Positions 4,136-48,921 of a DNA stretch of 64,000 bases are shown here, piece after piece; position 1 is the stretch's first letter; each line of letters begins with the position of its first letter. Made by a program: the position numbers and the translations under genes. The DNA is from a virus, in IMG/VR virus record IMGVR_UViG_3300029286_000029, one strand, 5' to 3'. The notes below the pieces were generated by a model. The model searched no databases and was not told the origin of the DNA. It saw only the letters and a program-made list of their open reading frames with translations.

Positions 4136-5617
4136 TTAATATCCAGCCGGAGGCATATAATTTTGATAATTCAATTGTGTCATTGGTTTATCACTTAAAA
4201 CCTTGAATCCTTGTAAGGCAATCGCCGTCGCAAAAATAGCATCATCATGATATCCGTCCATCGCAACCATATTATTAGCATCGTTAAAAATAAAAACCGT
4301 CATTTCATCTACTGTCTCTTTTGAATGTAAAGTAATGGTATCTTCCCTTGTACTTTGCTCAAATTCGTCAATTAAAATTGGCCGGGTTAATTTAGTTGTC
4401 TTCCAACCTAATTTGTCACTCCAAGGATTTCCAATTGTATCAAATCTTGCAGGACGAAAATACAAAGAAGGATAAAGCATTTGCTTAAGAATATTTAACA
4501 CAACACTTCCGTGCGCCTCTGCTTCTACCACCATCAGGGCGTTATTGTACTTTCTTCCCCACTTGTCCAGGACTTTTGCAAATTTATCTGGGGCAATATG
4601 ACCACGCCAAAAAGCGACCTCTTCCCCACTATTCCTATCTAAAATTACAGCAACGGCATAGTCACCCCCGGTTACGCCCTCTGAACAGTCAGCCCCAAGA
4701 ACATAAAAATGACCATTCTCTGGTGGTTTATAAATTCTAAATCCTTCTTCTTCCCGAACAATATGTTCAGATCCATCAGCCATCTTTACTGAACTACCTA
4801 CCTTTAAAACTCTCTTCCTTTGCAAGTTAATTGCTTCCTGTGTAAAAACAGATCGTCCAGAAATTAAAAACTCAAGAGCATAGTTGTTATTAAACTTACG
4901 CTCATTATTCATTCTTCTCTTAATTATCTCTATTTCTGATTCAGAATAATTCCACCACCACCCATATTCTTTTTTTATATAATCGTTATCAGAAACCCAC
5001 ATTCGATGGAAATAATCTCCCACAGCACCGGGAGAAGATTCGATAATTATTTTCCCGTTTACAGGAACAGACGCCTCGAGAGTCACCATTTTTTCTTCTG
5101 TTTTATCCCAGAAAGGCACCTCAGTCAACAAGGCATAATTTATTGTATATCCTCGACCAACGTTCTCAGTAGAAGGAAGAACTAAAATTTTAGAATCCAC
5201 CTTCGGAAAAGAAATTTCATACTTAGAGTTGTAATGGATCGTTGGTTTTATAGCGTCTGGAGTTGTCCTATAAAAAGTTTTAATTTTGTCCAAAAGTTCA
5301 GCCGTTAAGTCGTTGTTGTACCCAACTAACGCTGTCGTTACACCAGCAGTAGTAATTGTTTTATGATAAAGAAATCCAGTAACGGCAGTTGAAAATCCGA
5401 TCTGCCGCGCTTTCATTATAATAATACGGTTATTTCTTTGAATCGTATTAAAAATATCAAGTTGCGCAGGTTTAAGAATAAAGGGAACTAAACCCTTTCC
5501 TTCTTTTCCTTTGATTCTACAAAAATTCTCTATGTAGTATCTAGGATCAGCCAGTTGTTCAATTCCAGCATTAGTCATAAAGTCCTCTTGATTCTTTATT
5601 AGCCTTTTCTTTAGCAA
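4136..5617 (-). CDS. terL: Terminase large subunit (ATPase plus nuclease). The annotated start is TTG; an alternative ATG start at 5578 gives MTNAGIEQL.
   Basis: A Walker-A-like motif KARQIGFSTAV is typical of TerL. The C-terminal RNase H-like nuclease region carries acidic motifs (VLGADCSEG, MVVEAEAHG, DGYHDD). Confidence 0.85.
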   Translation of the reverse strand: MLKKRLIKNQEDFMTNAGIEQLADPRYYIENFCRIKGKEGKGLVPFILKPAQLDIFNTIQRNNRIIIMKARQIGFSTAVTGFLYHKTITTAGVTTALVGYNNDLTAELLDKIKTFYRTTPDAIKPTIHYNSKYEISFPKVDSKILVLPSTENVGRGYTINYALLTEVPFWDKTEEKMVTLEASVPVNGKIIIESSPGAVGDYFHRMWVSDNDYIKKEYGWWWNYSESEIEIIKRRMNNERKFNNNYALEFLISGRSVFTQEAINLQRKRVLKVGSSVKMADGSEHIVREEEGFRIYKPPENGHFYVLGADCSEGVTGGDYAVAVILDRNSGEEVAFWRGHIAPDKFAKVLDKWGRKYNNALMVVEAEAHGSVVLNILKQMLYPSLYFRPARFDTIGNPWSDKLGWKTTKLTRPILIDEFEQSTREDTITLHSKETVDEMTVFIFNDANNMVAMDGYHDDAIFATAIALQGFKVLSDKPMTQLNYQNYMPPAGY

Positions 5618-7237: not shown

Positions 7238-10200
7238 TTATTTAGAGATTTTAGTCGTGTCCAAAGTATACATCGGAATACCCGTAGTGCCAAGTACTGA
7301 GCGTAAAGTCTTAACAATGGCATTTTCTTTTGTCATCGCGCCGACTGAACTCCTCCCTTGTTCTGCCAGAGCCGTACTTCTAAAACGGTAACTTGGAATT
7401 AAATTAATTACCTCCGATGGTAATCCACCACCGAATAAACCTAAATATCCAAGTGACCCAGGGACAACTGACTCAAGCATTGTTCTTCCAGCATAAAAAG
7501 CTTTTATTCCTAGGTTATCTTTTGTCAATTTACCTTTATCATCATAGGTCGGATAAACCGGTTGGCCAAACTGTCCTTGTGGAGCTTGGTTTGTTCCAGA
7601 TAGGATTAAAGGTTGAATAAAAAAGTCTTTAATCACCTGTCCAGCTGGATCTTGCAATATCGGCATTTTATCTAACATCTTTAAGAAACGACCCTGAGCA
7701 GAATCATCATAAGTTTTTTCAGAAGGATTAAAAATGTTCATACCGTAAATTGGGATAGCATTTTTAACATTGGTGTTTATCATTCCAAAAATCTTCACAA
7801 CAGTTGGTGAGTTAAGATATTGATTATACTTTTCTTGCATCGCTAGTTTCTCAGCTGGTGTCCTCGAACCGGAAATTTCACTAAGCACAAAACCAATCTT
7901 ATTAAAAACAGCTGGGTTAGCAATTGCAGTTTTACCCATCTTAATCGCCATAGCGTATTGAAAAGAAAAGAACGGTGAACCCAAGATTGGTAAAGATTTC
8001 ATTATCTGAACAAATCCAGGCATTGCAGCATAATTCATAAAAGCCTCCATTGAAGCTTCCACTGCTTTCAGCGGAGTAAGACGATACAATTTCTCCCCCC
8101 CCGAAATTATTGGATCTAAAAAGTCTCCTTTTACTATCGGTATCTGTCTACTCATTGTCACTAACTCCTGCTCTGTTAAACCAACTTTGGTCATATAATT
8201 AACCGAAGCAATTTTTTGAATCTGATCAACATGCTCATACATCCTTGGGAGTTTATTAACCACCAGATTAGCTCCCTGGGCTATTATATTACCCGGTTCA
8301 TCTTCCACTATTTTAGCAATCCAATTTCTAAATTGATCAAGTTTCGCATTATTTATTTCATTCTCAAGGAACGAAGTAGTCTTCTCAGATTCTCTAACTG
8401 GAGCTTCTTTTGCTAATTTTGCTAAGGTTTCTGATTGTGTTGGGTATTTACCCATTGCCTGCTTCACAGATGAAATTTGTGTCTTAGTAGCTTCTTTTTC
8501 AAATTTTACAGCATCTTCAAACTTACTAGCATTTGACATAGCTGAATCAAAATCTTCCCATTGTTTAGATAAAAATGATTTTACTTCCTTAAAACCGTCA
8601 CCCTTACTTAATTCTCCAATAATTCTTTGTTCGATAGACATCTTATCAATCACAGTACTGGGACTAACTCCGGTAAAAGTTCTGAAGACATTAGAATTTT
8701 TCTCCATCATCTCAGTCAAAGAATTTATATCAGATAAAAACATGTTACGTAGCTCCAATGCGGTAAGTTTGTTATTTAAAAAATTACGAGCAGACATTAA
8801 TTCCTTTAAATAAGCCGCTTTGTAAGTAGGAATACCCAACATTGGACCCATAAGAAAGTTACCAGCGGTATTCACTACCGCCGATCCAACGTTCATTCCT
8901 GTTTTAGTTGCTTTCATTACAGCTGTCCAATCAACCAGACCGGTTAGAATCTTTTCAAAAGGATGCCATTCACCAGGGGTCATTTTAGGAATAGATTTTA
9001 CAACATCAATAGCATTAGTTTTAACAGCATTAGTTTTAACAGCATTAAAACTATTCCAAAGTCTAACAGTTTCTTCAGCACCATCAATAACAGCTTTTTC
9101 GACTTCTACCGCTGTTGCTGGAACTGATTTAAAACCATTTTTAACATAATTAAAAATGTCGTTATAACTTGTAGCCTTTACTTTATCTATAAAATTATCA
9201 TACCAAGATACCCCCGTTTTACCGTAGTCAACTACCTTATAAGCATCAACTAAACGCTTCATATTCTCACTGTCCTCAGCTATACCAGTAAGTACCTTGG
9301 CATTTTCTAATGAATCATAGATCTTAATTTTACCTGTTAGAGCTGGATTTAAGATCCCTTGAGCATTTCTTACTTCAAGATTATAAACACCATCAGCATC
9401 CTTTACTGCCATCTTAGCTAATTCATCCGTTGCTTCTGATATTGTTATAGTTGCACCTGGTTTTTCAAAATCAGCAATATCTACAAAGTGAGCTTTACCC
9501 ATAGATCTTTCGAATGCAGCACCCTTCATTTTGTATAATTGTTCAACTTCATCTTTTTGTTTTGTTACCGCCAGAGTATCTGCAGGAGAATACTTAAAGA
9601 ATTTAACAATCGATTCTCCACCGGAAACTTTTTTAATTAAATTTTCAACAGTCTTACCTACAACTCCAGACGGCAAACCAGTAAGAATTCCTTTTCCTAA
9701 TTTATCATAAACACTTGTTCCCATTAAGGAATCATATTTATCAGCATTTTTAATCGCTTTTGCTCCAATTTTTGCCACTATGTCAGTGTACCCTGGAACA
9801 TTATGAGCAAAAGGCACCAACTTCATTGCAGTTGCTGTTTTTTGTTCAACGCCAGATTTTAATCCTTCCCATCCAGTTTCAAGTGCCTTGGTAGGACTCC
9901 ACCCTCCACTAACGGCATTCTTAACTTCTGCCACTCTAGAACCAATAGATTCTCCTAATGGTTTCAATCCACTCTCTGCTACTTCTCTCAAAGCCGTCTC
10001 CCCTAAGTTTTTAGTCCCCGTCTTTAAGCCTCCTTTTATCAATCCCGCTCCCACTCTGGGGATAAGGGCTGCCGTCCCAGCGGTTGCCCAGTTGATCGGA
10101 TCCAACGCTACGTCTAAAGCAAAACCCAAAGGAATTTGGACAAAACGTGGTGCACCAAATTGAGTAAGAACATTACCGGCAGTAAGACCCGTTTCTATCG

Positions 10201-18923: not shown

Positions 18924-19269
18924 CCACATGCTCACCCAACTCTTAATCACCTTAATATTCCTAGAAACCAATCTAACCCGCCTTCAAAATCATCTTCCTC
19001 AACTCACGCAAACGATTGAATTAAATCAAATCGCTCAAAATAGAGCTGAAACAATCAATAAAACAAGAAACTTCTCTCACAACACTTCCTGGGTCGATAA
19101 CACTGATTGTTCCTGGTATGGCGAAAATCTCGCCGAAGGTTACGATGATCCAGTCCAAGCCTGGCTCAAGTCACCAACTCATCGTCTTAATATCCTATTC
19201 CCTGAATTCAATCAGATCGGTATAGGAAAATCAGGCAAATACACCGTCGAAGTATTTTGCCAAGAATAA
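18916..19269 (+). CDS. CAP/SCP/PR-1-like domain protein, 117 aa.
   Basis: CAP signature-like segments CSWYGENLAEGY and WLKSPTHRLNIL..IGIG (compare GENIA and H.TQ.VW). Confidence 0.45.
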   Translation: MNNHMLTQLLITLIFLETNLTRLQNHLPQLTQTIELNQIAQNRAETINKTRNFSHNTSWVDNTDCSWYGENLAEGYDDPVQAWLKSPTHRLNILFPEFNQIGIGKSGKYTVEVFCQE

Positions 19270-20378: not shown

Positions 20379-21002
20379 ATGGCCTGGCAATGCCCACACT
20401 GCAATCACACACTTGAGAAATTAAATTATGGCGTCGATACAAATCAAAGAGAATATGGAACCGCCTACTTAACAGACGAAAAACCAGAAACAACTGAAGA
20501 CAGAAATAATTCCAATGAAATGATTGAAGATTGGAATCAAGATGACAATGGAGATTCTGAATGGTCAGAAGATCCAAGTTATTCTTGTCATGAATGTAAT
20601 GAAGAATTAGAATTAAGTGACTTAATCTGGATAGAAGAAGAAAAAATAACAATAGAAAAAATAGAACCGGAAAAAACAACTGAACCAGAAGAAACTCTTC
20701 ATAATATAATCCATCCTGAAAAATCTCTTTTAGATGAAAGAGAAAATCGAAAAAGAGTCTTTGATGCAACAATAATCTGCAAAAAATGCAACCATGTTTT
20801 TATCAATGAAAATGATCAATATACAGATATGCATGGAATTAGCAGTAATGAAAACAATAGTTGCGAATGTCCAAAATGTTCAGAAATGAATTCCACCAAA
20901 GAATTCCAAGAATTACTCAAAAAAGGTTACTTTAACAACATTAATCCCAAACAATATGCAAGAAAGAAGAATAAATCTAAACTTCTCGGAACTTTGGGTT
21001 AA
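20379..21002 (+). CDS. Acidic multi-zinc-ribbon protein, 207 aa.
   Basis: Four CxxC pairs (CPHCNH, CHECNE, CKKCNH, CECPKC) separated by acidic linkers. Confidence 0.5.
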   Translation: MAWQCPHCNHTLEKLNYGVDTNQREYGTAYLTDEKPETTEDRNNSNEMIEDWNQDDNGDSEWSEDPSYSCHECNEELELSDLIWIEEEKITIEKIEPEKTTEPEETLHNIIHPEKSLLDERENRKRVFDATIICKKCNHVFINENDQYTDMHGISSNENNSCECPKCSEMNSTKEFQELLKKGYFNNINPKQYARKKNKSKLLGTLG

Positions 21003-21630
21003 TCCGAATAATAAATTCATTGTCAGATTCTTAGATATTAATGAACAAAGACAAAAAATGTTTGCCAAAAGAATCAAACAAACTGCCAAATATCGAAGAA
21101 TCAGGAATGAAAATGGACCAACAGAACAAGAAATATATGAATTATTATCAGAAATCAATCCTATAATCTTCTCTGAAAAAATAACAGATAGAGGATGGCA
21201 TAGCCCAAACAGTCCTCAAAATTTCAATTTCTTCCAATGTCACACAATCGCTAATCCATTATATCGAATTCTATGCAAAATAATCTATATTATCCTTTGT
21301 CTGAAAAAACCGTTAAAAACAAAGGAAATGAGCAATTTAATATATCTAATATGCGGAGATTGGAATCTAGTTACGGAATGGCGAAGAACACATTATCCAG
21401 AAATACCAGAATTAAATCCACATGCAATATTAGCTAATGAAAATCCCAGAAGAGAAGTCGAAGAAATTAGCTTAGATATTATTGAACAAGCCAGAAGAAG
21501 AGTTACTAATGGTCCAGAAGATAGAGGAGAAGAAGAAAATGCTAATGAACCAATAATGAGAAGCAGAACAATAATTGAGATAACTCCTGAAGGAATATAT
21601 AGAAGAGATTATAATGATTATAATATTTAA
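20956..21630 (+). CDS. Hypothetical protein of 224 aa. The true start may be the internal Met at about 21058.
   Basis: ORF track. It overlaps the previous gene by 47 nt when the first start is used. Confidence 0.45.
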   Translation: MQERRINLNFSELWVNPNNKFIVRFLDINEQRQKMFAKRIKQTAKYRRIRNENGPTEQEIYELLSEINPIIFSEKITDRGWHSPNSPQNFNFFQCHTIANPLYRILCKIIYIILCLKKPLKTKEMSNLIYLICGDWNLVTEWRRTHYPEIPELNPHAILANENPRREVEEISLDIIEQARRRVTNGPEDRGEEENANEPIMRSRTIIEITPEGIYRRDYNDYNI

Positions 21631-21650: not shown

Positions 21651-23285
21651 ATGTCAACAAAAGAAAAAGAAACCCTAAAAGAATTTGATTTCAAAATAGG
21701 CGCAGATCCAGAATTTATTCTCACCATGCAGGGCAGAAAGGTCGATGCCAAACAAACCATGGAAATAATGCTTAAAAATAAGCCAGATTTAAGAAAAGTA
21801 GGAATGGGTTATGCTATTAAAGACAAAAATTGTGGTGATATAGGTTGGGACGGAGCTGATTCCACCGGTGAAATTCGTCCTAGTGCCAGCAACGATCCCA
21901 AAAAAGTAATCAACAACCTCGGAACATTGCTAAAAATATTCACCAAATACATCAAACTTTGTGATATGTCCACCATCTCTGAATATAGTTCAATTGGAGG
22001 GCATATACATCTGGAAGTTCCAAAAGGAGAGCATTGGTCAAGAGAAAAAGAAAATCTTATCCATCGTCGATTAGCTTCATTTTATCTTCCAGTCTTAATT
22101 TCCGAAAATAAAACTAATCTAAATCTGAGATTAAGACAGTCATATGGCTCAATCAAAGATCATCGGATAGAAAATAAGTTCACTTATGAAGATGGCGCAG
22201 ATGGAAAAACATTCGAATTCCGTTGTCCATCAGCTGAATGGTTAACCACCCCTAAATTAGCCGAAGCCACTCTTGCTTATATGGCAGTTGTCTATCATGA
22301 AATTCTAAAACACCCTAAGAATTTCTCAAACTTCAATGATATTGTTTATAAAAGCGACAAACAAGGCGATGCTTTACAAACTCTAGCCATCATGGAATTC
22401 GAACTATTAACTGACAACATCTTACAAAAAGCCAGAAAATATGTCCGAACCTTCGAAATGTATCCACAATACAAAAATGAAATCGAATATATCTTTAATC
22501 CAAAACAAATAATTAAAGATAAGCAAAAAGCCGATTTCAACATTGCATTAGGTTGGAAACTTCTCGATCGGCAATCAGTTCCTAAGAAATCCGAAATTCT
22601 ATCATCAAAAAAGAAAATCATGAGCATTGCTAAACAAAAAGATTTCGATATCTTAAAACAAGTCATGAATATCCACCACAATGATGATACTAATGTCGGA
22701 GTCTTCGTCGAAAATCTCAAAGATCGAGTTGCTGCTTTCAATTGGAAGCTAAAAAACAATTATTTCATCTTCGGCATAAGAAAAGGCATCAATGAAATAA
22801 TCACCAGGAATCTAAAAGGTGAATATCTAACAGGTAAAAATATAATCAAAACAGAATTAGATCATGATGCTATTAGTCGTTTATTCGATAAAATGAATAA
22901 TAAATTCAATAGCAATATCGATCGCACCTTAAGCACAACTCTAGATTTCACCACCGGCAAACCAAAGGACTTAAGAGAATCAATCATTCTAATTGGTTTA
23001 CCTTATGGAATGAGAGTCAGTGAAGAAATTAAACCATTTCTTAATCTGATTTGGTCATTAGAGAAAGGTGAAATAACCAGTAAAAATGCAATCAATAATA
23101 AAAATGAACAAAAACTAATTAATGATTGTAATCTACCAGATGAACAAAAAGGTGAAATCTATAAAATTCTAAACAGAAAAATAGAAACCAATCAACAAGA
23201 AGTAGTGATGGATAATGGATCGACAAGCCTAAGACATCATTTGAACGCCGTCGACCAAATGATCAATGAATTTCCTGCAAATTAA
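21651..23285 (+). CDS. Glutamine synthetase-like amidoligase (Amidoligase_2/GCS2-like COOH-NH2 ligase), 544 aa.
   Basis: N-terminal FKIGADPEFIL matches the G.E.E-type motif. SIGGHIHLEV matches the G.H.H motif of GCS2/amidoligase families. The gene is followed directly by a class-II GATase gene. The assignment is motif-based inference. Confidence 0.5.
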   Translation: MSTKEKETLKEFDFKIGADPEFILTMQGRKVDAKQTMEIMLKNKPDLRKVGMGYAIKDKNCGDIGWDGADSTGEIRPSASNDPKKVINNLGTLLKIFTKYIKLCDMSTISEYSSIGGHIHLEVPKGEHWSREKENLIHRRLASFYLPVLISENKTNLNLRLRQSYGSIKDHRIENKFTYEDGADGKTFEFRCPSAEWLTTPKLAEATLAYMAVVYHEILKHPKNFSNFNDIVYKSDKQGDALQTLAIMEFELLTDNILQKARKYVRTFEMYPQYKNEIEYIFNPKQIIKDKQKADFNIALGWKLLDRQSVPKKSEILSSKKKIMSIAKQKDFDILKQVMNIHHNDDTNVGVFVENLKDRVAAFNWKLKNNYFIFGIRKGINEIITRNLKGEYLTGKNIIKTELDHDAISRLFDKMNNKFNSNIDRTLSTTLDFTTGKPKDLRESIILIGLPYGMRVSEEIKPFLNLIWSLEKGEITSKNAINNKNEQKLINDCNLPDEQKGEIYKILNRKIETNQQEVVMDNGSTSLRHHLNAVDQMINEFPAN

Positions 23286-23304
23286 TAACTAACCAATAAT
23301 CCAA

Positions 23305-24675
23305 ATGTGTGGACTTCTCGCTTGTTTTAACACCAAAACCAATAACAAGGAACCAGAAGATGCCAATGATTTCATTGTTAATCAATATGAAGATCAAGTC
23401 AATCGAGGATCAAAAGGATTCGGAATTATAAGAATAGACAAAAAGCAAAATATAGAAATTGATCGCGCCACCGAACCAGTCAAATTCTTACTTGATCTCT
23501 ATATGAAAAAATCCAATATGATTATCGCACACCACAGAACACCAACTTCTACCGATAATCAAATTGATCAAACTCATCCAATGTATGTAACCAATAAGCT
23601 ATTAAAATATGATTATTTGGTAGTTCATAATGGATTAGTCACAAATGATGAAGAATTGCATAAGAAACATCTAGAATTAGGATTCGAATACAGCACAGAA
23701 TACACAATTGAAGACAAATTCCTAAAAGAAAAAGCTAAATGGAATGATTCAGAATCATTAGCCATTGAATTAGCCTTATATATCGAAAAAAGAGTCGATA
23801 AAATAGGAATTGATAATGCTGCTGCGTTCATTATCGTCCAAATCAATAAAGAAAATCTTAAAGCCCATCGCATCTTCTTTGGACGACATGAAACATACAG
23901 CTACTTAAATCTAAGTAAAAAGAAAGGTGAAATGAAAATTTCCAGCGAAGGAATAGGTGAAGAAACAGCCGTCGATAAATTATATTCCTTCGATCCTAAT
24001 GATCCAAAAATGAAATTAACAAAAATCAAAATGACATTTTTGGAAAAACCACCATATGTTAGGCCCACAACAGGACTTTATGAAAAATCAACAACAGATA
24101 TTCATCCAGCCACAACTGCCATTACACCAACAACAGAAACTACATCCCAACCGACCTTAAGACAGTGGATGGGAGAAGATAATGAACCAAAAGGTGTAGA
24201 TGAATTAGCTGGTCCTAATGATTTTATCATAGAATTCGCTGACAAAGGTTATTTAGGAAAATTAAAAACCAAATTCACAGAAAACATAAAAGATATTAAA
24301 GCCGCAGATATAACTCAAGTTCTAAATGACACATTAGAAGAAGAAACAGATACACTTAATCAAATCGTCGAAGCATACAAAGAACAAGTAATCAGTCTAG
24401 AATACTTCGATGATAAAGACAAACAAGAATATATCAACCAGATTTGTCGAATCATTAATGGCATGAAAACAATAACTGAAATAGCCAATGATGAATATCT
24501 GCAAAAAGATTATGAAGAACAAGAAGCAAAAAAAGAATTTGGTGATGAATTAGGATATGCCGGATATCATGAATCAACTGGTGGAATATATGGTGACGAT
24601 TTCAGAGAAGAAGATGCTTTCGGCATGCCACCACATAGACCTGTTGGATACAAAACCCCATATCATCTAGGATGA
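23305..24675 (+). CDS. Class-II glutamine amidotransferase (Ntn hydrolase) domain protein of 456 aa. The GATase domain is about 200 aa and the tail is acidic and low-complexity.
   Basis: The catalytic Cys follows the initiator Met (MCGLLACF). IAHHRTPTSTD resembles the Ntn R..T motif. VVHNGLVTNDEEL matches the GATase-II HNG.I.N oxyanion motif. Confidence 0.75.
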   Translation: MCGLLACFNTKTNNKEPEDANDFIVNQYEDQVNRGSKGFGIIRIDKKQNIEIDRATEPVKFLLDLYMKKSNMIIAHHRTPTSTDNQIDQTHPMYVTNKLLKYDYLVVHNGLVTNDEELHKKHLELGFEYSTEYTIEDKFLKEKAKWNDSESLAIELALYIEKRVDKIGIDNAAAFIIVQINKENLKAHRIFFGRHETYSYLNLSKKKGEMKISSEGIGEETAVDKLYSFDPNDPKMKLTKIKMTFLEKPPYVRPTTGLYEKSTTDIHPATTAITPTTETTSQPTLRQWMGEDNEPKGVDELAGPNDFIIEFADKGYLGKLKTKFTENIKDIKAADITQVLNDTLEEETDTLNQIVEAYKEQVISLEYFDDKDKQEYINQICRIINGMKTITEIANDEYLQKDYEEQEAKKEFGDELGYAGYHESTGGIYGDDFREEDAFGMPPHRPVGYKTPYHLG

Positions 24676-25088
24676 ATAATTATCCCACCGAAAACCAAAT
24701 TCTAAAGAAAAAACCGTATCTCAGTAAGAAAATCATAAAAGCCATAATGATCTGGAAAAAACTAAATTTCTTTAACTGGTCAAAAAAAAACAAAAAAGAA
24801 AAAATAATTGAATTACAAGTATTAATACTTATGATTTCAATCATTGTTAAAAGAAAAATGATCAGCACAGAAGAAACAATGTTCTATGCCTATGATCCAA
24901 TAAGAATTAGAATATTCTTAAACAAAAATAATCCAAGCATTTTATCCACTTTACACGAATTAGGACATTATCTTTATGGTCCAAGTGAATTAACCGCTTG
25001 CCGTTGGTCAGTTTGGATCTTCAAAGAATGTTTTCCAGAATTATTCAAAAACCTAAGGTTCGAAGGCCATTTATTAGTTAAGAAATAA
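24672..25088 (+). CDS. Small HExxH (zinc metallopeptidase-like) protein of 138 aa. It is translationally coupled to the GATase gene through an ATGA overlap.
   Basis: LHELGHYLYGP contains HExxH. The start codon overlaps the upstream stop at 24672-24675. Confidence 0.45.
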   Translation: MNNYPTENQILKKKPYLSKKIIKAIMIWKKLNFFNWSKKNKKEKIIELQVLILMISIIVKRKMISTEETMFYAYDPIRIRIFLNKNNPSILSTLHELGHYLYGPSELTACRWSVWIFKECFPELFKNLRFEGHLLVKK

Positions 25089-25149: not shown

Positions 25150-25449
25150 ATGCCATCAATAACAATCCCAATCGGTTCTAAAGTCACCCAAACAGAAAGG
25201 AAAAACATTGAAATCCGAGTTCCAAATACAAAATTCTGGATAATCGGACATCAAGACATTACTAGCAAATTGTGGGATGTTTTCCTAGTCGACCCACAAA
25301 CTAAAAGAAAAGAATTAATAAGAGCAAATACTTCAACCAAGGTATTCTCAATGTACACAAACATTGTTCTTAAGCAAGAATTCCCTTATGAGGGAAAAAG
25401 AAACAAAAATTTCGAATTCATTAAAAAAATAATCAAAAAAATAAAATAA
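25150..25449 (+). CDS. Hypothetical protein, 99 aa.
   Basis: ORF track. Confidence 0.45.
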   Translation: MPSITIPIGSKVTQTERKNIEIRVPNTKFWIIGHQDITSKLWDVFLVDPQTKRKELIRANTSTKVFSMYTNIVLKQEFPYEGKRNKNFEFIKKIIKKIK

Positions 25450-25450
25450 T

Positions 25451-25897
25451 ATGAGTGAAAACAACACCGTTTCTACCGTTTTAACCGACAAAGTTAATGC
25501 CTTTAAACTCATCGCCCGCGATGCTCTTCGGATGAAACTTATCAGCCCTCGGTTAAGCAATATCGCCGATTTGGAAAATAACATTACCAACATTACCAAA
25601 GACATTAATGCCAATGATCATATGATCGTAGTTGCCAACTATGAAATGAAAAAATTGGATACTGAACATCCTGATTACGCTGAACACAAAGCTCGCAAAG
25701 AAGATAAAGTAAGATGCATCACCGAAAATGTTGTCAATATGAAGAAAAATATTGATGAAATAAATAAATATATCCAAGAACAAAAAGATGGAATCGCCAA
25801 GATTGAATTAGGTGAAACCAAAGTTTCTCTTGATGATCTTAACGAAATGGTCGATAAACTCGTTAGGGAAGACGCTTATGTTCAGGTAAAGTCCTAA
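25451..25897 (+). CDS. Coiled-coil hypothetical protein, 148 aa.
   Basis: ORF track. Heptad-like charged repeats. Confidence 0.5.
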   Translation: MSENNTVSTVLTDKVNAFKLIARDALRMKLISPRLSNIADLENNITNITKDINANDHMIVVANYEMKKLDTEHPDYAEHKARKEDKVRCITENVVNMKKNIDEINKYIQEQKDGIAKIELGETKVSLDDLNEMVDKLVREDAYVQVKS

Positions 25898-25941: not shown

Positions 25942-25993
25942 ATGTAAGAATTTAAGATCTTATATTGACTGAAAAAATCAACAAAAAGCTCTA

Positions 25994-26021
25994 AAGCCAG
26001 CCTTATAAGCTGGCTTTTTTT
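25994..26021. terminator. Rho-independent terminator: stem AAGCCAGC/GCTGGCTT plus a T7 tract.
   Basis: 8-bp stem, 7-nt loop and a T-run. It is the second unit of a duplicated terminator plus TTGACTGAAAAAAT element. Confidence 0.55.
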
Positions 26022-26601: not shown

Positions 26602-26892
26602 TTAATTATTAAGAATCAAAATCACGTCTGAAGAATTAACTAACAAATAATCTTTACCATCTAATTTTACAATAGTCCCGTAATTAAACATAATTTTATT
26701 ACCGACGGCAACTGAATTTATGATATAAGAGCCATTATCGGTCACTCTTCCCGGTCCCGCTGCCACCACCACACCTATTTTTATCTCACCAGGGTTGTCA
26801 TCAGACTTAGAAATGACTAATCCACTACCCCGAACTTCAGTCTCGTCAACACTAACCAAAACACGATCACCGAGAAGTTTTATATTGTCCAT
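26602..26892 (-). CDS. groS: Co-chaperonin GroES.
   Basis: Classic GroES sequence: IKLLGDRVLV...ETEVRGSGLVI...GEIKIGVVVAAGPGR. Length is 96 aa. Confidence 0.85.
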   Translation of the reverse strand: MDNIKLLGDRVLVSVDETEVRGSGLVISKSDDNPGEIKIGVVVAAGPGRVTDNGSYIINSVAVGNKIMFNYGTIVKLDGKDYLLVNSSDVILILNN

Positions 26893-28561: not shown

Positions 28562-30181
28562 TTACTTCACTCCGTTTGGTAGAACTTGTGGCTCATCAGC
28601 CATGGCCGTTTGCATTGTCAAAAGTATGCTACCAGCCGACACCGCATTTTCTACCGCCGAACGAGTAACCTTAACTGGATCAATTATACCAGCGTTTATC
28701 AGGTCGTCCACATACACATTTTTAAGAGCGTCATAACCCCCACCCTCCTTCATTTCTTTAACCTTTGACACCACCATCGAACCGTCTCCTAGTCCGCAAT
28801 TAATAGCGATATTCGTCAGGGGCGATTCAAGAGCCAAAGCTAGGATCTCAAAGCCGATCTTTTCATCGGAAGTCAAGTTAGAATTGGCCGTCAGAGCCTC
28901 TAGAACCCTCTTAGACGCACGAACAAGGGTCGCACCGCCTCCTGGCACTATTCCCTCTTCAATCGCCGCTTTTACGGCCGCTACCGCATCTTCAATTTTG
29001 AGTTTTAGATAACGACTTTCGGTTTCCGTGGCGGCACCGACCTTGATCACGGCAACACCACCCGACAAACGAGCAATCCTTTCCTCAATTTTCAATTTAT
29101 CATGTTTAGACTCCTGTGTTTCCACTTCTTTTTTAGCCGACGCAATCCGAGTATTAATTTCTTCTGGATAACCTTTGCCACCAACTATCGTCGTCTTTTC
29201 TCGCTTGGACACCACCCGATCAGCTGTTCCCAAGTCAGCAAATTTAACCGTCTCCAGTTTCCGACCCAATTCACTAGAAATAAAAGTGGCGCCAGTCAAA
29301 ATGGCAATATCTTCCAAGTAATCTTTCTTTCGTAAGCCAAATCCAGGTGCTTTAATACAAAGAGTCGTAAAGATTCCTCGTAATTTATTGACGATAGCGG
29401 TTTGCAACGCTTCGCCAACCACATCTTCCGAAATAATAACCAATTCTTTACCGCCATTTTGCATCACTTCTTCTATGATTCTAGCTAAATGTTCAGCCGA
29501 ACCGATTTTTAAATCCGTTACTAGAATTTTTACATTTTTGCATTCCGCTTCCAATCTTTCTGCATCCGTTACCATATAAGGCGAAATAAACCCCTTGTCA
29601 AATTCCATACCTTGGCTTACTTCGGTCGTAATACCAGTGGTAGGAGACTCTTCAATAGTAATAACGCCATCCGTACCCATTTTGGCGATAGTATCAGCAA
29701 TCAACTTACCAATCTCTTCTGATTCGGCGGAAATGGTCGCTACTTGAACAGTCTCATCGCCTTCCTTGATTGGTTTGGCTATTGACTTCAGATATTCCAT
29801 CACGACTTTGGACGCCTTTTCAATTCCATTGCGGATTCCCACAGCGTTTACACCCACCGCAATTTTCTTCATACCTTCAGCGACAATAGCCTGAGCCAAG
29901 ACGACAGAGGTTGTCGTCCCGTCTCCTGCGGCATCATTCGTTTTTTGCGCCACTTCCTTAGCAATGCCACACCCCATATTTTGTATCGGGTCTTTCAAGA
30001 CGACTTCCCGGGCAATTGTTACACCGTCGTTAGTGATTTGAGGACCGCCATATCCTTTATCGAAGACCACGTTGCGACCACCTGGTCCGATTGTTACTCT
30101 TACAGCATCACCAACTGCGTCTACACCAACTTTTAATTCCTTACGAGCTTCGTCGCCAAATTTTATGATCTTATGTGACAT
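28562..30181 (-). CDS. groL: Chaperonin GroEL (Hsp60), 539 aa.
   Basis: Unambiguous GroEL sequence: DAVRVTIGPGGRNVV, GDGTTTSVVLAQAI, equatorial, apical and intermediate domains are present, and the C-terminus reads VVSKV. Confidence 0.95.
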   Translation of the reverse strand: MSHKIIKFGDEARKELKVGVDAVGDAVRVTIGPGGRNVVFDKGYGGPQITNDGVTIAREVVLKDPIQNMGCGIAKEVAQKTNDAAGDGTTTSVVLAQAIVAEGMKKIAVGVNAVGIRNGIEKASKVVMEYLKSIAKPIKEGDETVQVATISAESEEIGKLIADTIAKMGTDGVITIEESPTTGITTEVSQGMEFDKGFISPYMVTDAERLEAECKNVKILVTDLKIGSAEHLARIIEEVMQNGGKELVIISEDVVGEALQTAIVNKLRGIFTTLCIKAPGFGLRKKDYLEDIAILTGATFISSELGRKLETVKFADLGTADRVVSKREKTTIVGGKGYPEEINTRIASAKKEVETQESKHDKLKIEERIARLSGGVAVIKVGAATETESRYLKLKIEDAVAAVKAAIEEGIVPGGGATLVRASKRVLEALTANSNLTSDEKIGFEILALALESPLTNIAINCGLGDGSMVVSKVKEMKEGGGYDALKNVYVDDLINAGIIDPVKVTRSAVENAVSAGSILLTMQTAMADEPQVLPNGVK

Positions 30182-33415: not shown

Positions 33416-33937
33416 TCAAGAAGTATGAAACCAGTTATAATATATATCAGTCTCCCCGCCCTTTTTAGGCCAATCTGAGTGAATAATGTTAAGTAATAAT
33501 CCAAGTTTCTTTCGTTGCCATGCATAAATCAACCTAAAGGTACGACCATTAAAATCCTCAAAAGGATGCACATCTTCAAATTTAATGTGCATATCTTGAG
33601 TAAATTTATTAGGTTTTTTTAATGTCGCTTTACTGGGATTGTTAACTTCAAAACATATATCTTCTATACGTTTTTCAATATCTTGGATACTAAGAAATAC
33701 CTTTCTCTTCCCACCAATCCATACATCGCACTCACGCCACTTACCAGCAATACGTGGATTAATATTCCGGGCTAGTAACATATGAACAGCCAAAATCGTT
33801 CCCGGTGTAATAACTGGTTGTTTAGCAAGATAAGCCCACGCTTTATAAGCATCAGCTAATGCTTCTTTGCCATAAACCTGCTCAATGGCGTTGCTCTCTT
33901 TCAAGAACTTTAACATTTCGGGTTTGTAATAATACAT
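33416..33937 (-). CDS. Fic/Doc-family domain protein with a non-canonical motif (HPFEDFNGRTFR).
   Basis: Fic motif HPF.[DE]GNGR..R has G replaced by F. An upstream ESNAIEQV segment resembles the Fic S..IEG motif. Confidence 0.55.
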   Translation of the reverse strand: MYYYKPEMLKFLKESNAIEQVYGKEALADAYKAWAYLAKQPVITPGTILAVHMLLARNINPRIAGKWRECDVWIGGKRKVFLSIQDIEKRIEDICFEVNNPSKATLKKPNKFTQDMHIKFEDVHPFEDFNGRTFRLIYAWQRKKLGLLLNIIHSDWPKKGGETDIYYNWFHTS

Positions 33938-37399: not shown

Positions 37400-37831
37400 T
37401 TAATAACCACTCTCACACTGATCCCTCGGACTCGTATCTGGTGCATTTTGACAAGAATCCAAACACCTTGTTCTACTTTCCCCAAGTGGGGCGTTAAAAC
37501 AATTATCTCTACACGTTTGTTGTTCAGTTCTACTCGGTAAATTTGAACAATCACGTGTCCGCGACTGCTGATCCGCCGGTTGCACGGCCGACGGATCAAA
37601 CTGCTGCTTGTACCAATCAGGTACTTCCACATATTGGAGACATCCAGCTGGCAACTCAGAAATTGTATTATGACTAATTTTCGTCTTACACATTTCTTCT
37701 AAAGTACCGATTTTCCCATTTTCTTCGGCTTTTTTTCTTGCTGATGATAGAGAAGATAGAACAATAGTTGACAGAATACCAATAATCGCGATTATAACCA
37801 GGAGTTCAATTAAGGTAAATCCTTTTTTCAT
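37400..37831 (-). CDS. Type IV pilin/pseudopilin-like protein of 143 aa with a prepilin N-terminus and a Cys-rich C-terminal domain.
   Basis: MKKGFTLIELLVIIAIIGILSTIVL is the class III signal G|FTLIE followed by a hydrophobic helix (N_methyl motif). Confidence 0.6.
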   Translation of the reverse strand: MKKGFTLIELLVIIAIIGILSTIVLSSLSSARKKAEENGKIGTLEEMCKTKISHNTISELPAGCLQYVEVPDWYKQQFDPSAVQPADQQSRTRDCSNLPSRTEQQTCRDNCFNAPLGESRTRCLDSCQNAPDTSPRDQCESGY

Positions 37832-37832
37832 G

Positions 37833-38687
37833 TTATTTTAGATTCAAAAAAGGAACAGCACCTCCGGGCACCATTTGCGTAGGCAAGTGGCCATCCCAGG
37901 ATTTCACGGCTTGCAACTGAACATAATCAGCTCCACCTTGTGAATTAATCGCGGCGGCCGAAATACGGATAGCTTCAGCATCAGCCTTCGCCTTCTCAAT
38001 CGTCTGTTGAGCTTCAAACTTTACCTGTTCAAGTTTATTCTTAGCAGCCTCAGAATTTTGTACAGCCGTAACCTTGGCCTCAATCGCCGCGGAAAACGCC
38101 TTAGAAAACTCAAAGTTCGTAACAGAGAAACGTTCCATTACCGCATTCTTTTCAGTGAACTGAGTAGCGAGTAATACATTAACCTTATCAGAAAATTCCG
38201 CCCGCTTTGTTACCAATTCCTCAGCTGTATATTGAGCCGAAACCGATTTTACAATTTCCCGAATCATCGGTTCAATCACGTTGGACTGGTAATTTTCAAC
38301 TGAACTGTATTGAGAATAAATATCCTGAACTTTTTCAGCTTTGACGTGATAGTTAACCACTACGCCAATCGTCACATCCTGCAAGTCTTTAGACGCACCA
38401 AACAGATTGGTATCGGTTTGTTTCTCGTCGCCATTATCGCCACCTTTATCATAATTAATCGTCTGAGTCTTGATCGACATCGCATGGACCGCTTCAATAA
38501 ACGGCAACTTAAAATACAAACCTTGCTGGATAGTTCCCACGACTGCGCCGAAACGAGTCTTGACGCCAATTTCACCAGCCTTAATGGTTCCGATTGAACC
38601 CCACAAGAGAGAAATTACGATAATAATTCCAACCACCCACGCAACCATCGTTCCGATACCTTTAATATTTTTTATATCTTCGTCCAT
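37833..38687 (-). CDS. SPFH/band-7 (prohibitin/HflK/C-like) membrane protein, 284 aa.
   Basis: An N-terminal TM helix is followed by a band-7 core and the characteristic C-terminal helix RFSVTNFEFSKAFSAAIEAKVTAVQNSEAAKNKLEQVKFEAQQ. Confidence 0.8.
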   Translation of the reverse strand: MDEDIKNIKGIGTMVAWVVGIIIVISLLWGSIGTIKAGEIGVKTRFGAVVGTIQQGLYFKLPFIEAVHAMSIKTQTINYDKGGDNGDEKQTDTNLFGASKDLQDVTIGVVVNYHVKAEKVQDIYSQYSSVENYQSNVIEPMIREIVKSVSAQYTAEELVTKRAEFSDKVNVLLATQFTEKNAVMERFSVTNFEFSKAFSAAIEAKVTAVQNSEAAKNKLEQVKFEAQQTIEKAKADAEAIRISAAAINSQGGADYVQLQAVKSWDGHLPTQMVPGGAVPFLNLK

Positions 38688-39144: not shown

Positions 39145-40107
39145 TTATTCCCCTGACTTAAGTTTCTTCATTTCTTCTTTCTTGCCAGATAGATACCAAC
39201 CCATATAAGCTCCGAGCGCTCGCAGATCTTTGACGACCATCGGGCGATGAAAGTCATCAAAACTATCTAATGGATGTTCATCAAGCAATTCCATCAATTC
39301 AACAGCTTTTTCTGAAATGAATTTCATCGCATCAGCTGGTTCCTTCACGCGAGACATTTCGTCAGGAATAATCTTATTGATCTTATGAAGAGCTTCAACT
39401 GAAGTTAAACCTTCATAATTTTCTTTTAGTAATTCTTTTACTAGATGATCTTCTTCGTATTTTTCAGCTCTCTTTAATGCACTAGCAATATTTCTGACTG
39501 TATCGCGAGTGACATCTTTTTGAGAGGCCACCAAATGCCTTAAATCTGCTTGATATTTTTTAGGAGAATTATTTACAATCTCAACCTTTGACATCTGAAA
39601 TCCTTGGGTCTGAAGAGCTTTTTTCATTTCACCAGTCTCACCTAGAAGATCCAAGAAACGTGAAATAGTGCTTTCTGGTGTACCGAGAAGTTTATGAAGT
39701 TCAAGAATACCTTTTCGATAACGATCAGCTTGATGTTTCTTATCACGATCCAGTTCCACCGTGGAACTGGATACCCAGGTTCGGATCTTCTCTAACGAAG
39801 TGGCTGTATCCAATGGAGACATTGTATTCTGATGAATATTTTCTTGTACCTGACGAATAAAACGTTCCTTAGGTGAAATTTTTTCTATTATCTTAACCGG
39901 AATCTCTTTTAAGCCCGCCATCTTTGATGCCCGCCAGCGACGTTCACCGGTTATAATTACCATATCCTTATCAACTTCGATCGCGTTAATCACTCCTTCA
40001 TTACTAATTGAAACAGTCATTTCTTTTAACGCTTCCTCGTCAAAGTTTTTTCTCGGCTGATTAGGATCTGGACGAATTTTATCAATTGGTATTGTTTGAT
40101 ATTTCAT
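39145..40107 (-). CDS. ParB/Spo0J-like protein with an N-terminal ParB nuclease domain, 320 aa.
   Basis: IPIDKIRPDPNQPRKNFDEEALKEM ... ITGERRWRASKMAGLKEIPVKI carries the ParB box motifs. The phage gene is not assigned as parB. Confidence 0.8.
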   Translation of the reverse strand: MKYQTIPIDKIRPDPNQPRKNFDEEALKEMTVSISNEGVINAIEVDKDMVIITGERRWRASKMAGLKEIPVKIIEKISPKERFIRQVQENIHQNTMSPLDTATSLEKIRTWVSSSTVELDRDKKHQADRYRKGILELHKLLGTPESTISRFLDLLGETGEMKKALQTQGFQMSKVEIVNNSPKKYQADLRHLVASQKDVTRDTVRNIASALKRAEKYEEDHLVKELLKENYEGLTSVEALHKINKIIPDEMSRVKEPADAMKFISEKAVELMELLDEHPLDSFDDFHRPMVVKDLRALGAYMGWYLSGKKEEMKKLKSGE

Positions 40108-47910: not shown

Positions 47911-48921
47911 ATGAAAAAAACCAAAGAAGAAAATGAGGCAGTAGAAGAAGCAATGGCTTCACTTCAAAAAAAATACGGTAAAGACGTTTTAATTCAAATG
48001 GATGCAGAAATGAGCTTCAAAGTAGAGGCTATCCCGACTGGCTGTTATTCCCTGGATGAAGCCTTGGGTTGTGGCGGACTACCTCGTGGACGTATCATCG
48101 AAATCTTCGGTAAAGAGAGTTCCGGCAAAAGCACTCTTACAACTTTTTTGATGGCGCAAATTCAGAAGTCTGGTGGACGAGCAGCTCTAATTGACGCAGA
48201 AATGGCTTTTGATGGAAGTTATGCTAAAGCCATTGGTGTTGAGGTGTCTAAACTCATGGTTTCACAACCTGGATCGTTGGAAGAGGGAATGGATGTTTTA
48301 CGAGAATTAGTTAACACTAAAGCATTTGATATTATTGTGATTGATTCAGTTGCCGCACTTGTACCTAAATCTGAAATTGAAGGGGATGAGATGTTAAAAG
48401 ATTCGATGGCAGTACAGGCACGTCTCCTTGGGAAAGCATTAAGAATTTTAGCTGGGGAAATTTCAAAGTCTAACACGATTGTAATATTTGTCAACCAAAT
48501 TAGAGATAAAATAGGCGTTTTTTATGGTGCGAAGACAGTGACACCAGGTGGCCGAGCTCTAAAATTCTTTAGTTCTATCCGTATGGACGTCTCTGCTGGA
48601 GATAAAATACTCGGAAAGAATGATGAACAAATTGGCAATTCACTCAGAGTTAAAATGGCAAAGAATAAGACCGCTCCACCATGGAGGGAAGCAAATTTCG
48701 ATTTATACTACTCAAGAGGGATAGACCTTATATCAGATGCTGTGGATTATGGCGAGAAAATCGGCGCGATAAAGAAAAGTGGAAACACTTATTCCTTCGA
48801 AGGTAAGGAATTAGGGGTAGGGCGCGAGAAGGTAATCAAAGCAGTCACTAATGATGAAAAGTTATTTAACGATATTAAAGACAAGATTAATAATGTAATC
48901 AAAACTAAAGATGCAAAGTGA
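47911..48921 (+). CDS. recA: RecA-family recombinase, 336 aa.
   Basis: GLPRGRIIEIFGKESSGKSTLT (Walker A), ALIDAEMAFD, IIVIDSVAALVPKSEIEGDEM and the L1/L2 loop region are all present. Confidence 0.9.
   Translation: MKKTKEENEAVEEAMASLQKKYGKDVLIQMDAEMSFKVEAIPTGCYSLDEALGCGGLPRGRIIEIFGKESSGKSTLTTFLMAQIQKSGGRAALIDAEMAFDGSYAKAIGVEVSKLMVSQPGSLEEGMDVLRELVNTKAFDIIVIDSVAALVPKSEIEGDEMLKDSMAVQARLLGKALRILAGEISKSNTIVIFVNQIRDKIGVFYGAKTVTPGGRALKFFSSIRMDVSAGDKILGKNDEQIGNSLRVKMAKNKTAPPWREANFDLYYSRGIDLISDAVDYGEKIGAIKKSGNTYSFEGKELGVGREKVIKAVTNDEKLFNDIKDKINNVIKTKDAK

Follow-up and report, generated by a model that had tools for sequence, protein, structure and literature searches.

Described phage amidoligase cassettes

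Cassettes that combine an amidoligase with a glutamine amidotransferase (GATase) have been annotated in many phage genomes since 2009, and have been read as cell-wall modifiers, as blocks to superinfection or as nitrogen “auxiliary metabolic genes”, all of these roles being putative. Such a cassette was reportedly predicted in phiEco32- and LUZ24-like phages by Iyer, Abhiman, Burroughs and Aravind in 2009, and modification of peptidoglycan stem peptides is said to have been proposed for this classical form by Iyer in 2009 and Hardies in 2013. We know of no characterised example of a class-II GATase that is paired with a GS-fold ligase. The pairing of a ligase with a GATase-II in phage early regions has been a topic of discussion since Iyer et al. 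[quoted passage not shown]

The window analysed here, 64,000 nucleotides of the IMG/VR virus record IMGVR_UViG_3300029286_000029, carries three linked open reading frames on its plus strand, ORF1 (544 aa, 21651-23285), ORF2 (456 aa, 23305-24675) and ORF3 (138 aa, 24672-25088), exactly where a sequence-only reading of this DNA had placed them. That reading treated the three genes as an operon of their own and as the best candidate in the window for an undescribed functional system; neither view can be maintained. The linked ligase–GATase–zincin layout is a variant of the known phage cassette: the Pfam family of the ligase, PF14395, is entitled ‘Phage phiEco32-like COOH.NH2 ligase-type 2’ and is thus named for its phiEco32 context, and the ligase–GATase pairing has long been discussed. 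Furthermore, an upstream Zn-ribbon protein and two small downstream proteins travel with the three genes, so that the module comprises about six genes, encoding an acidic Zn-ribbon protein, a ligase, a GATase, a zincin, a small basic protein and a coiled-coil protein.

Comparison with the classical cassette

As in the phiEco32 and LUZ24 cassettes, a PF14395 ligase in the window adjoins a class-II GATase with a non-synthetase C-terminal extension, and the block belongs to the early or replication part of a lytic phage genome. ORF1 has the motifs GADPE and GGHxH in common with LUZ24 gp16, and the N-terminal domain of ORF2 is 29% identical to LUZ24 gp19. Some relatives of the window phage also share a short ligase and an AIG2/GGACT gene with the classical cassette; a second, LUZ24-like short ligase is found in the early block of L005, L012 and L020, and the GGACT protein of L005 is homologous to phiEco32 gp77 (E 9e-8). 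In contrast to LUZ24 and phiEco32, the window ligase is twice as long, owing to a conserved extra C-terminal domain that is missing from their short ligases, and the block adds the zincin and the Zn-ribbon, small basic and coiled-coil proteins, which have no counterparts there. No HExxH motif occurs anywhere in the LUZ24 and phiEco32 cassettes, and HMMs built from the window families give only marginal matches to the classical proteins (lig_N, E 0.005-0.33; gat_N, 4e-5).

Several classical components were not found. Amidoligase_2 (PF12224) gave no Pfam match in the early block, and phmmer searches with LUZ24 gp18 and phiEco32 gp84 found no match in the whole window; the RimK-like ATP-grasp proteins LUZ24 gp21 and phiEco32 gp80 were unmatched in the window, no Pfam ATP-grasp domain appeared among the scanned window proteins, and no AIG2/GGCT gamma-glutamyl cyclotransferase was found in the window. 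These results bear on the possibility that, early in infection, the ligase and GATase add an amide or an extension to a carboxylate of the host's cell-wall peptide (iso-Glu, mDAP), leading to a block of superinfection or to altered lysis; the zincin would then be a peptidase of stem peptides. For such a role the “three unusual linkages” argument needs the ATP-grasp, Amidoligase_2 and GGCT enzymes, all three of which the window lacks. Similarity to amidase_3 does not rise above the noise expected of a generic alpha/beta fold, and the Zn-binding triad lacks conservation. Inspection of the translations by eye revealed no obvious signal peptide or membrane anchor in the block proteins, so action on peptidoglycan would need cytoplasmic precursors. 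We regard this role as quite unlikely for the window block.

The ligase

The proposal that the first gene encodes an amidoligase of the GS/GCS2 type was correct. ORF1 matches PF14395 well above the gathering threshold (46 bits, cutoff 25; E 5.3e-12), with residues 16-283 aligned to positions 1-234 of the 254-position profile, and the same family was found in every listed ORF1 homologue. In the family alignment the columns corresponding to G17, D19, P20, E21 and F22 and to G116, G117, H118 and H120 are invariant, acidic, His and Arg residues are conserved on the predicted active-site strands, and the protein was found to have a GS/GCL-type carboxylate-amine ligase fold. ORF1 is accordingly a predicted ATP-dependent amide-bond ligase, in which an N-terminal GS/GCL/PafA-fold carboxylate-amine ligase domain of the phiEco32-like COOH-NH2 ligase type 2 (aa 1-285; 21651..22505, plus strand) is followed by a conserved alpha/beta domain (aa 286-544; 22506..23285, plus strand).

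A sequence search with ORF1 against PDB chains gave no detectable match. Its best structural neighbours, YbdK, GCL and gamma-glutamylmethylamide synthetase, all form gamma-glutamyl bonds. ORF1 differs from the YbdK/GCS2 ligases and the gamma-glutamylcysteine ligases in its extra C-terminal domain and, to our knowledge, neither YbdK nor GCL has a GATase and a zincin as obligate genomic partners.

The glutaminase

ORF2 consists of an N-terminal class-II (Ntn) GATase or glutaminase domain with Cys2 as nucleophile (aa 1-245; 23305..24039, plus strand) and an acidic C-terminal tail of variable length (aa 246-456; 24040..24675, plus strand). The protein begins with MCG, and among 54 sequences M1 is kept in 100% and C2 in at least 90%. 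The motifs R34-G35, H76-H77-R78-x-P80-T81, H108-N109-G110, N147-D148-S149-E150 and S213-S214-E215-G216 fall on invariant columns, as do the motifs that the sequence-only reading had quoted. The glutamine-binding and oxyanion residues within these motifs (R34-G35, R78/T81, N109-G110 and D148/E150) align with those of PurF 8w7d; R78 and D148 are the residues that bind the free alpha-carboxylate and the alpha-amino group of glutamine, respectively. A profile of the ORF2 family detects PurF 8w7d (E 1e-6) and GFAT/GlmS in the PDB with MCG, HxRxPT and HNG aligned, and NCBIfam matches are to GlmS-type (1.4e-6) and PurF (1e-4) families. ORF2 alone reaches 18.3 bits against Pfam GATase_6 (PF13522), for which the gathering score is 27; several of its homologues singly pass. 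Judged from sequence, ORF2 carries a genuine class-II (Ntn) GATase domain, as had been proposed from its MCG and HNG features.

Like EgtC and the glutaminase domains of PurF and GlmS, ORF2 combines an N-terminal Cys nucleophile with R-x-x-T, an N-G oxyanion hole and a D-S-E glutamine-binding motif. Unlike these proteins it has no fused synthase or isomerase, a feature noted from the outset, and carries a 210-aa acidic tail in its place; residues 246-456 are without a domain match. The earlier description of this tail as acidic and of low complexity holds for its acidity (net charge -21). It is not purely of low complexity, since a segment at about residues 300-400 is moderately conserved among closer relatives (gat_C HMM). 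A [MLCIV]-G-[FY] motif lies near the C-terminus in 37 of 104 tails, compared with 5.8 +/- 2.3 in shuffles, and takes the form VGY in the window, 7 residues before the end.

A pathway of the EgtA/EgtC or PuuA/PuuD style, in which the ligase adds a gamma-glutamyl group to a small amine, for instance a polyamine or an amino-acid derivative, and the Ntn domain later strips this group off again, would make the block an auxiliary metabolic or detoxification module. It would agree with the gamma-glutamyl chemistry of the structural neighbours of ORF1, and the ORF2 residues that recognise free alpha-amino and alpha-carboxyl groups also suit a gamma-glutamyl-X compound. Further enzymes that cleave gamma-glutamyl bonds, namely Peptidase_C26 (L003, L007 and L012), which is the PuuD family, and GGACT (L005), occur in the early block of relatives; these accompany ORF2 rather than replacing it, however, and are absent from the window. 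The ORF2 profile matches PurF and GlmS but no EgtC-type PDB chains, the score of ORF2 against GATase_4 is lower than against GATase_6, and such a pathway leaves the zincin, the Zn-ribbon protein, the coiled-coil partner and some 260 aa of additional ligase domain unexplained. We consider it somewhat unlikely.

The zincin and its neighbours

ORF3 is a minimal zincin metallopeptidase with a net charge of +14, characterised by HExxHxxxGxxE and a distal His133. Its ATG overlaps the stop codon of ORF2 as ATGA, which was reported earlier and can be read directly from the sequence (ctaggATGAataatt). The early identification of an HExxH metallopeptidase was also well founded: all 151 of 151 sequences have H95, E96 and H99, the motif lies on helix 90-102 of the structure model, and the protein was found to have the zincin fold. 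Candidate third zinc ligands in the family are E106 (151/151) and H133 (146/151). With a catalytic core of about 110-140 aa and HExxH on the active-site helix of a zincin fold, ORF3 resembles the minigluzincins (proabylysin, projannalysin and selecase), IrrE/ImmA/CapP and SprT/Wss1. It has no match in Pfam, NCBIfam or PDB sequences, the lone weak match being to PHROG 87 ‘metallo-protease’ (E 0.006). The zincin family that it founds is large (627 representatives at 50% identity) and unannotated.

Two small plus-strand genes follow. The first, which we call g4 as the fourth gene counted from the ligase start (25150..25449), encodes a basic protein of 99 aa (net charge +11) in which no domain can be recognised. 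Its homologues are found at the corresponding place in 13 distinct loci, and L018 and L025 have no separate g4 gene; g4 is usually present but dispensable. The fifth gene, g5 (25451..25897), encodes a coiled-coil protein of 148 aa; in most loci its homologues come last in the block. Two representatives carry a zincin-g5 fusion, P0360 (E 8e-27) and P0280 (E 6e-21), and L025 has the order ligase, GATase, zincin-g5 fusion; g5 is a predicted functional partner of the zincin.

The first gene of the conserved block (20379..21002, plus strand) encodes an acidic double Zn-ribbon protein of 207 aa with four CxxC pairs, of which C5, C8, C70 and C73 are invariant; zinc-ribbon matches in Pfam and NCBIfam are weak. 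Its central region (residues 20-130) has a net charge of -24. By jackhmmer, each locus has a homologue next to the ligase, even the distant L022-L024; the gene is present as two tandem copies in L023, and in L021 is shifted downstream of the zincin, yet within the block. Between the Zn-ribbon gene and the ligase the window has a variable inserted gene (20956..21630, plus strand; 224 aa) with a weak match to DUF5677 below the gathering score (Pfam E 1.2e-4). Its homologues are limited to a subset of relatives (L001, L012, L015, L016 and L018), and it is probably outside the core of the block.

The acidic segments of ORF2 and the Zn-ribbon protein invite comparison with pupylation. A PafA/Dop-like ligase might conjugate, or amidate and deamidate, an acidic disordered segment (the ORF2 tail or the acidic loop of the Zn-ribbon protein), with the zincin and its coiled-coil partner processing the tag or removing the conjugate. 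Amide hydrolysis in the window would differ from the PafA/Dop system in falling to the Ntn GATase domain rather than to a Dop paralogue. Such tagging is unlikely: ORF1 is just as good a match to YbdK, which ligates free amino acids; neither the ORF2 tails nor g4 have a conserved C-terminal Gln or Glu equivalent to the GGQ/GGE of Pup; ORF2 has retained residues that recognise a free alpha-amino group, contrary to a peptidyl-Gln substrate; and the window proteins that were scanned included nothing like a proteasome or Mpa gene.

Conservation of the block

Sixteen distinct loci, ranging in GC content from 29–46% and differing in their flanks, retain the six-gene block. Each of the 16 distinct loci of sufficient length to display the three genes has the order ligase–GATase–zincin; ligase identity among them falls as low as 37%, and the co-conservation on which the sequence-only reading had made its case depend holds in every such relative. 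Genes flanking the block vary: the window and L003 have GroES/EL, L023 has RNR and L024 has UvrD. In most loci the stop codon of ORF2 either overlaps the start of ORF3 or directly adjoins it. In the window, a bidirectional intrinsic-terminator-like hairpin (25993..26017), with a GC-containing stem of 9-11 bp and T runs on both strands, ends the plus-strand block at the junction with convergent minus-strand genes. The three ORFs, which were thought to close the early gene block, are near its end but not final, since the genes at 25150-25449 and 25451-25897 intervene before this hairpin.

All full-block loci are phage or phage-like contigs of broadly similar genome size (86-103 kb), so synteny within one lineage could explain part of the linkage. 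That the genes are mere syntenic neighbours acting independently, with no common pathway, nevertheless seems very improbable. The block persists across changed flanks and the full range of GC content, the Zn-ribbon gene of L021 has been relocated without leaving it, two representatives join the zincin to g5 in one protein, and start and stop codons overlap. Moreover, the ligase–GATase pairing recurs in independent architectures, in the unrelated podovirus cassettes (LUZ24 gp16/gp19 and phiEco32 gp86/gp83) and in L028.

Proposed function and significance

With the folds, catalytic residues, gene linkage and gene fusion described above in hand, we infer the direction of the chemistry, the coupling of ORF1 to ORF2 and the nature of the substrate. 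Our preferred reading, to which we assign a probability of roughly 0.45, is that of a phage module of about six genes with the ORF1 ligase, the free-standing ORF2 GATase and the ORF3 zincin as its core, a variant of the Iyer-2009 cassette that would work by glutamine-dependent amidation. It agrees with the closeness of the ORF2 profile to the true amidotransferases PurF and GlmS, and with the gamma-glutamyl enzymes and second short ligases that relatives have in their early block. ORF1 would turn a carboxylate, most probably a glutamate-type gamma-carboxyl, into an acyl-phosphate and couple it to an amine. Cys2 of ORF2 would cleave the gamma-amide either of glutamine itself or of a gamma-glutamyl compound whose alpha-amino and alpha-carboxyl groups are both free, and the ammonia released would most likely be supplied to the ligase. 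ORF3 and its coiled-coil partner may then trim or release a peptide or protein substrate or product. The feeding of the ligase by GATase ammonia is plausible; we know of no GS-fold ligase that draws ammonia from a partner glutaminase, so that the channelling step would be unprecedented, and the conserved residues would suit a gamma-glutamyl amidohydrolase like EgtC or PuuD just as well.

The block probably forms amides, in a glutamine-dependent or γ-glutamyl reaction, on a substrate that is a peptide or protein. A peptide, protein or cell-wall peptide is favoured over a simple metabolite by the C-terminal domain of the ligase, by the three conserved non-enzymatic partners and by charge complementarity within the block, where the GATase tail (-21) and the Zn-ribbon protein (-20) face the zincin (+14) and g4 (+11); this last argument is only suggestive.

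A bolder form of this reading, which we think unlikely, sees in the block a self-contained apparatus for protein modification. A PafA/YbdK-like ligase, which the Ntn glutaminase would either feed or reverse, would amidate or gamma-glutamylate acidic residues of a block or host protein, and the [MLCIV]-G-[FY] motif would be the site at which the zincin and coiled-coil partner process the product. Assembled from other parts, such a system would be the viral counterpart of pupylation or polyglutamylation, and the phages that carry it may be those of CPR/Patescibacteria. Candidate targets within the block for a modification of this kind are the acidic tail of the GATase itself and the acidic Zn-ribbon protein.

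The window represents a second, compact cassette architecture of one ligase, one glutaminase, one zincin and three partner proteins, which is strictly conserved in hundreds of uncultured phages, about 90-100 kb in size. With its smaller set of enzymes, it offers a simpler system in which to work out the chemistry of the whole cassette class. It also brings to light three newly recognised unannotated families, the zincin, the ligase-associated C-terminal domain and the acidic double Zn-ribbon protein. If the substrate is a protein, the block would constitute a new kind of viral post-translational modification system.

Catalytic domains of the ligase, GATase and zincin

Three plus-strand open reading frames lie where the sequence-only reading placed them, encoding a predicted ligase (ORF1, 21651-23285, 544 aa), a class-II (Ntn) glutamine amidotransferase (GATase) with an acidic tail (ORF2, 23305-24675, 456 aa) and a zincin (ORF3, 24672-25088, 138 aa). 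The ORF2/ORF3 junction reads ctaggATGAataatt, so that the start codon of ORF3 (ATG) and the stop codon of ORF2 (TGA) share bases, bearing out the ATGA overlap described earlier.

Residues 16-283 of ORF1 match the Pfam family PF14395, “Phage phiEco32-like COOH.NH2 ligase-type 2”, with a score of 46 bits (gathering score 25). The name of this family reportedly leads back to Iyer, Abhiman, Burroughs and Aravind (2009). The two motifs from which an amidoligase had been proposed fall on invariant columns of a 43-member family alignment (G17-x-D19-P20-E21-F22 and G116-G117-H118-x-H120), in which the acidic or basic residues E74, R76, E152, R160, E189, R191 and E196 are also invariant. The ligase family numbers more than 295 representatives. 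All strong structural neighbours of ORF1 are enzymes that act on the gamma-carboxyl of Glu or Gln. The remainder of the protein (residues 286-544) constitutes a second domain that is kept throughout the family, with N344, D346, G375, P451, Y452 and R455 invariant. Sequence searches of Pfam and the PDB gave no match to this domain, and its structural matches were weak and generic.

By itself, ORF2 scores under the Pfam threshold (GATase_6, 18 bits against 27); NCBIfam supports the GATase assignment, and several ORF2 homologues clear GATase_6 unaided. When the family profile was compared with the PDB, it matched PurF (E 1e-6) and GFAT/GlmS with the MCG, HxRxPT and HNG motifs aligned, and thus the MCG and HNG features on which the class-II GATase claim was based do map onto these enzymes. 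The class-II hallmarks M1-C2-G3, R34-G35, H76-H77-R78-x-P80-T81, H108-N109-G110, N147-D148-S149-E150 and S213-S214-E215-G216 are invariant or nearly so in a 54-sequence alignment. R78 and D148 correspond to the PurF/GlmS residues that hold the free alpha-carboxylate and the alpha-amino group of glutamine, respectively. From this correspondence, ORF2 is predicted to act on either free glutamine or gamma-glutamyl compounds rather than on peptidyl glutamine.

The tail of ORF2 (residues 246-456; 24040-24675 in the window) is indeed acidic, with a net charge of -21. It varies in length and is poorly conserved save for a helical-looking segment and a short motif, [MLCIV]-G-[FY]. Of 104 tails, 37 end in this motif or have it a few residues before the C-terminus (5.8 +/- 2.3 in shuffles), and it could be a docking or cleavage site. 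A Pup-like C-terminal GGQ or GGE was looked for in the ORF2 tails and in g4, a small basic protein of the same block, and was absent from both.

The structure of ORF3 was modelled with a pLDDT of 94.5. An exhaustive profile search assigned 627 representatives at 50% identity to its family (377 with E <=1e-10), and family members are nearly all stand-alone proteins of ~140 aa. Among the best 150 of these 627 representatives plus the window protein, H95, E96, H99 and E106 of the motif HExxHxxxGxxE are invariant (151/151), while H133 is kept in 146/151 and C110 in 144/151. Attempts to place ORF3 directly in a family, by means of Pfam, NCBIfam and PADLOC as well as a profile search of the PDB, yielded no meaningful match, no curated family covering ORF3 was found in Pfam or NCBIfam, and the one match in BFVD is to an uncharacterised phage protein.

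Extent and conservation of the block

We analysed the neighbourhoods of ORF1 and ORF2 homologues from assemblies, IMG/VR and GTDB genomes. The gene order ligase, GATase, zincin is observed in all loci that extend far enough to reveal it, in agreement with the suggested co-conservation of the three genes. The proposed three-gene unit holds as to this order and falls short as to extent, since three further families belong to the block. Upstream of the triad is an acidic double Zn-ribbon protein with four invariant Cys residues (20379-21002), and downstream are g4 (25150-25449) and a coiled-coil protein, g5 (25451-25897). A bidirectional terminator-like hairpin (25993-26017) is located at the end of the block, and a variable insert gene (20956-21630) is found in some relatives only.

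The block is present in 16 distinct loci with GC contents from 29% to 46%, and its flanks vary: L023 has a ribonucleotide reductase there, L024 a UvrD helicase, and both the window and the relative L003 have GroES/GroEL. Variation is also observed within the block: the Zn-ribbon gene has moved in L021, remaining within the block, and is duplicated in L023, and a separate g4 gene is missing from L018 and L025. Zincin and g5 are fused in two protein representatives (P0360, E 8e-27; P0280, E 6e-21), and in L025 such a fusion directly follows the ligase and GATase genes. The block proteins are divided by charge, the Zn-ribbon protein (-20) and the GATase tail (-21) being acidic whereas the zincin (+14) and g4 (+11) are basic, which suggests electrostatic pairing.

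Genomic setting

The window represents a phage genome encoding a portal protein, large terminase, GroEL/GroES, an SNF2 helicase, a primase-helicase, SbcCD, RecA and four tRNAs. No close cultured relative was found, its TerL having at most 28% identity to any cultured phage record. A tblastn search of 50,697 phage records with ORF1 gave zero matches, and ORF2 gave a single weak match among phage records, to an unannotated 2-kb record. Block-bearing contigs (L026 and L027) are binned in CPR/Patescibacteria MAGs (Candidatus Shapirobacteria JBAYUY010000002.1 and Candidatus Paceibacterota JBAYME010000021.1). JBAYUY010000002.1 agrees in length and in the layout of its locus with the viral contig that carries L015 in IMG/VR. 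One ORF2 homologue is also labelled Shapirobacteria. Phages of the window lineage (~90-100 kb) may infect CPR bacteria, or the CPR labels may reflect an artefact of binning.

The block is closely followed, on the minus strand, by genes for a Cpn10-like GroES (26602-26892, 96 aa) and a full-length GroEL (28562-30181, 539 aa; PHROG 5725, E 4e-135), a pair that is kept near the block in L003. Unusual genes near the block in the early regions of relatives encode a DUF2828/DUF7788 protein (L003, 692-2092), an RtcB RNA ligase (L001, 1492-2673) and, in L023, SET-domain (4286-4744) and RRM-domain (16229-16519) proteins. The early block of the window also encodes a CAP/cysteine-rich secretory protein domain (18928-19269, plus strand; PF00188, E 3e-10), which to our knowledge is unusual in phage.

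Elsewhere on the plus strand, genes for full RecA (47911-48921; E 1.5e-97) and a peptide deformylase (56128-56688; Pfam E 5e-11) adjoin those for a DnaD/HTH protein, a DnaC/IstB-like loader, the primase-helicase and SbcCD. An NAD-dependent epimerase/dehydratase-like ORF (13258-14025, plus strand), which matches its Pfam profile in part only, is followed by an HNH-motif ORF (14029-14664, plus strand); bracketed by tRNA-Tyr (13153-13235) and tRNA-Pro (14644-14716), this pair may result from insertion of a mobile HNH element into a sugar-nucleotide gene. Minus-strand genes include a block encoding Fic/DOC-domain (33416-33937), SPFH/Band-7 (37833-38687) and ParB_N-domain (39145-40107) proteins and a protein with a type-IV-pilin N-terminal methylation motif (37400-37831). 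Two very large minus-strand ORFs of 1580 aa (59020-63762) and 1104 aa (7238-10552) matched no PHROG family at E 1e-5; presumably they encode structural proteins or injected ones, of a type not yet described.

Comparison with the phiEco32/LUZ24 cassette

As described in papers that cite Iyer et al. (2009), the classical cassette comprises a COOH-NH2 ligase, Amidoligase_2, a glutamine amidotransferase, ATP-grasp and AIG2/GGCT, is carried by phiEco32, LUZ24-like phages and other podoviruses, has a proposed role in cell wall modification and superinfection block, and in 2025 is still named a “putative peptidoglycan modification module” (PMC3890496, PMC10580990, PMC5498523, PMC11945000). The view of the triad as an undescribed functional system cannot be upheld, since its ligase and GATase domains are already part of this predicted cassette; overall, the observations of the sequence-only reading are confirmed and its interpretation is partly supported.

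The LUZ24 GATase (gp19) and ORF2 show 29% identity across the glutaminase domain, whereas the LUZ24 ligase (gp16) and ORF1 have motifs alone in common. Some relatives of the window phage possess a second, short ligase that matches gp16 (E 2e-20) and the window family (E 1.5e-6) and bridges the homology between gp16 and ORF1. A small contig from a Proteobacteria MAG (L028) has the classical minimal form, namely a short ligase, a GATase without a tail and a protein of 234 aa that is ATP-grasp-like as judged by eye only. The window lacks ATP-grasp, Amidoligase_2, AIG2/GGCT and Peptidase_C26, the first three of which belong to the classical cassette. In contrast, neither counterparts of the zincin, Zn-ribbon protein, g4 and g5 nor any HExxH protein were found in the LUZ24 and phiEco32 cassettes. 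Given the domains in common and the genes absent on each side, the window block has an architecture of its own, with two catalytic domains shared with a known phage system, itself predicted only.

Possible chemistry

Folds, catalytic residues, gene linkage and fusion are established for the block. ORF1 would be expected to form an acyl-phosphate on a carboxylate and then ligate an amine, and ORF2 to cleave a glutamine-type gamma-amide. A serious rival to donation of the resulting ammonia to the ligase is a scheme in which a gamma-glutamyl group would be added and removed, a hint of which is that relatives have Peptidase_C26 (the PuuD family) and GGACT genes in this early block; ammonia donation is our first choice because the ORF2 profile is nearer to PurF and GlmS than to EgtC-type hydrolases. 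The substrate would more likely be a peptide, protein or stem-peptide than a simple metabolite, because the block includes a zincin with a coiled-coil partner (fused in some genomes), a conserved acidic Zn-ribbon protein, an acidic tail, an extra ligase domain and complementary charges.

DNA or nucleotide hypermodification was considered because the block lies near replication genes, and was set aside as the leading idea when a scan of ~45 window proteins revealed no hydroxymethylase, DNA kinase, aGPT-Pplase, DpdA or QueC-like protein. An anti-defence or defence system was also rejected, the PADLOC matches being coiled-coil noise only.

The block represents a very widespread form of a phage enzyme cassette that has long been unsolved, and one that is both compact and tractable, and the window also yields three unannotated protein families: the zincin, the ligase-associated C-terminal domain and the acidic double Zn-ribbon protein.
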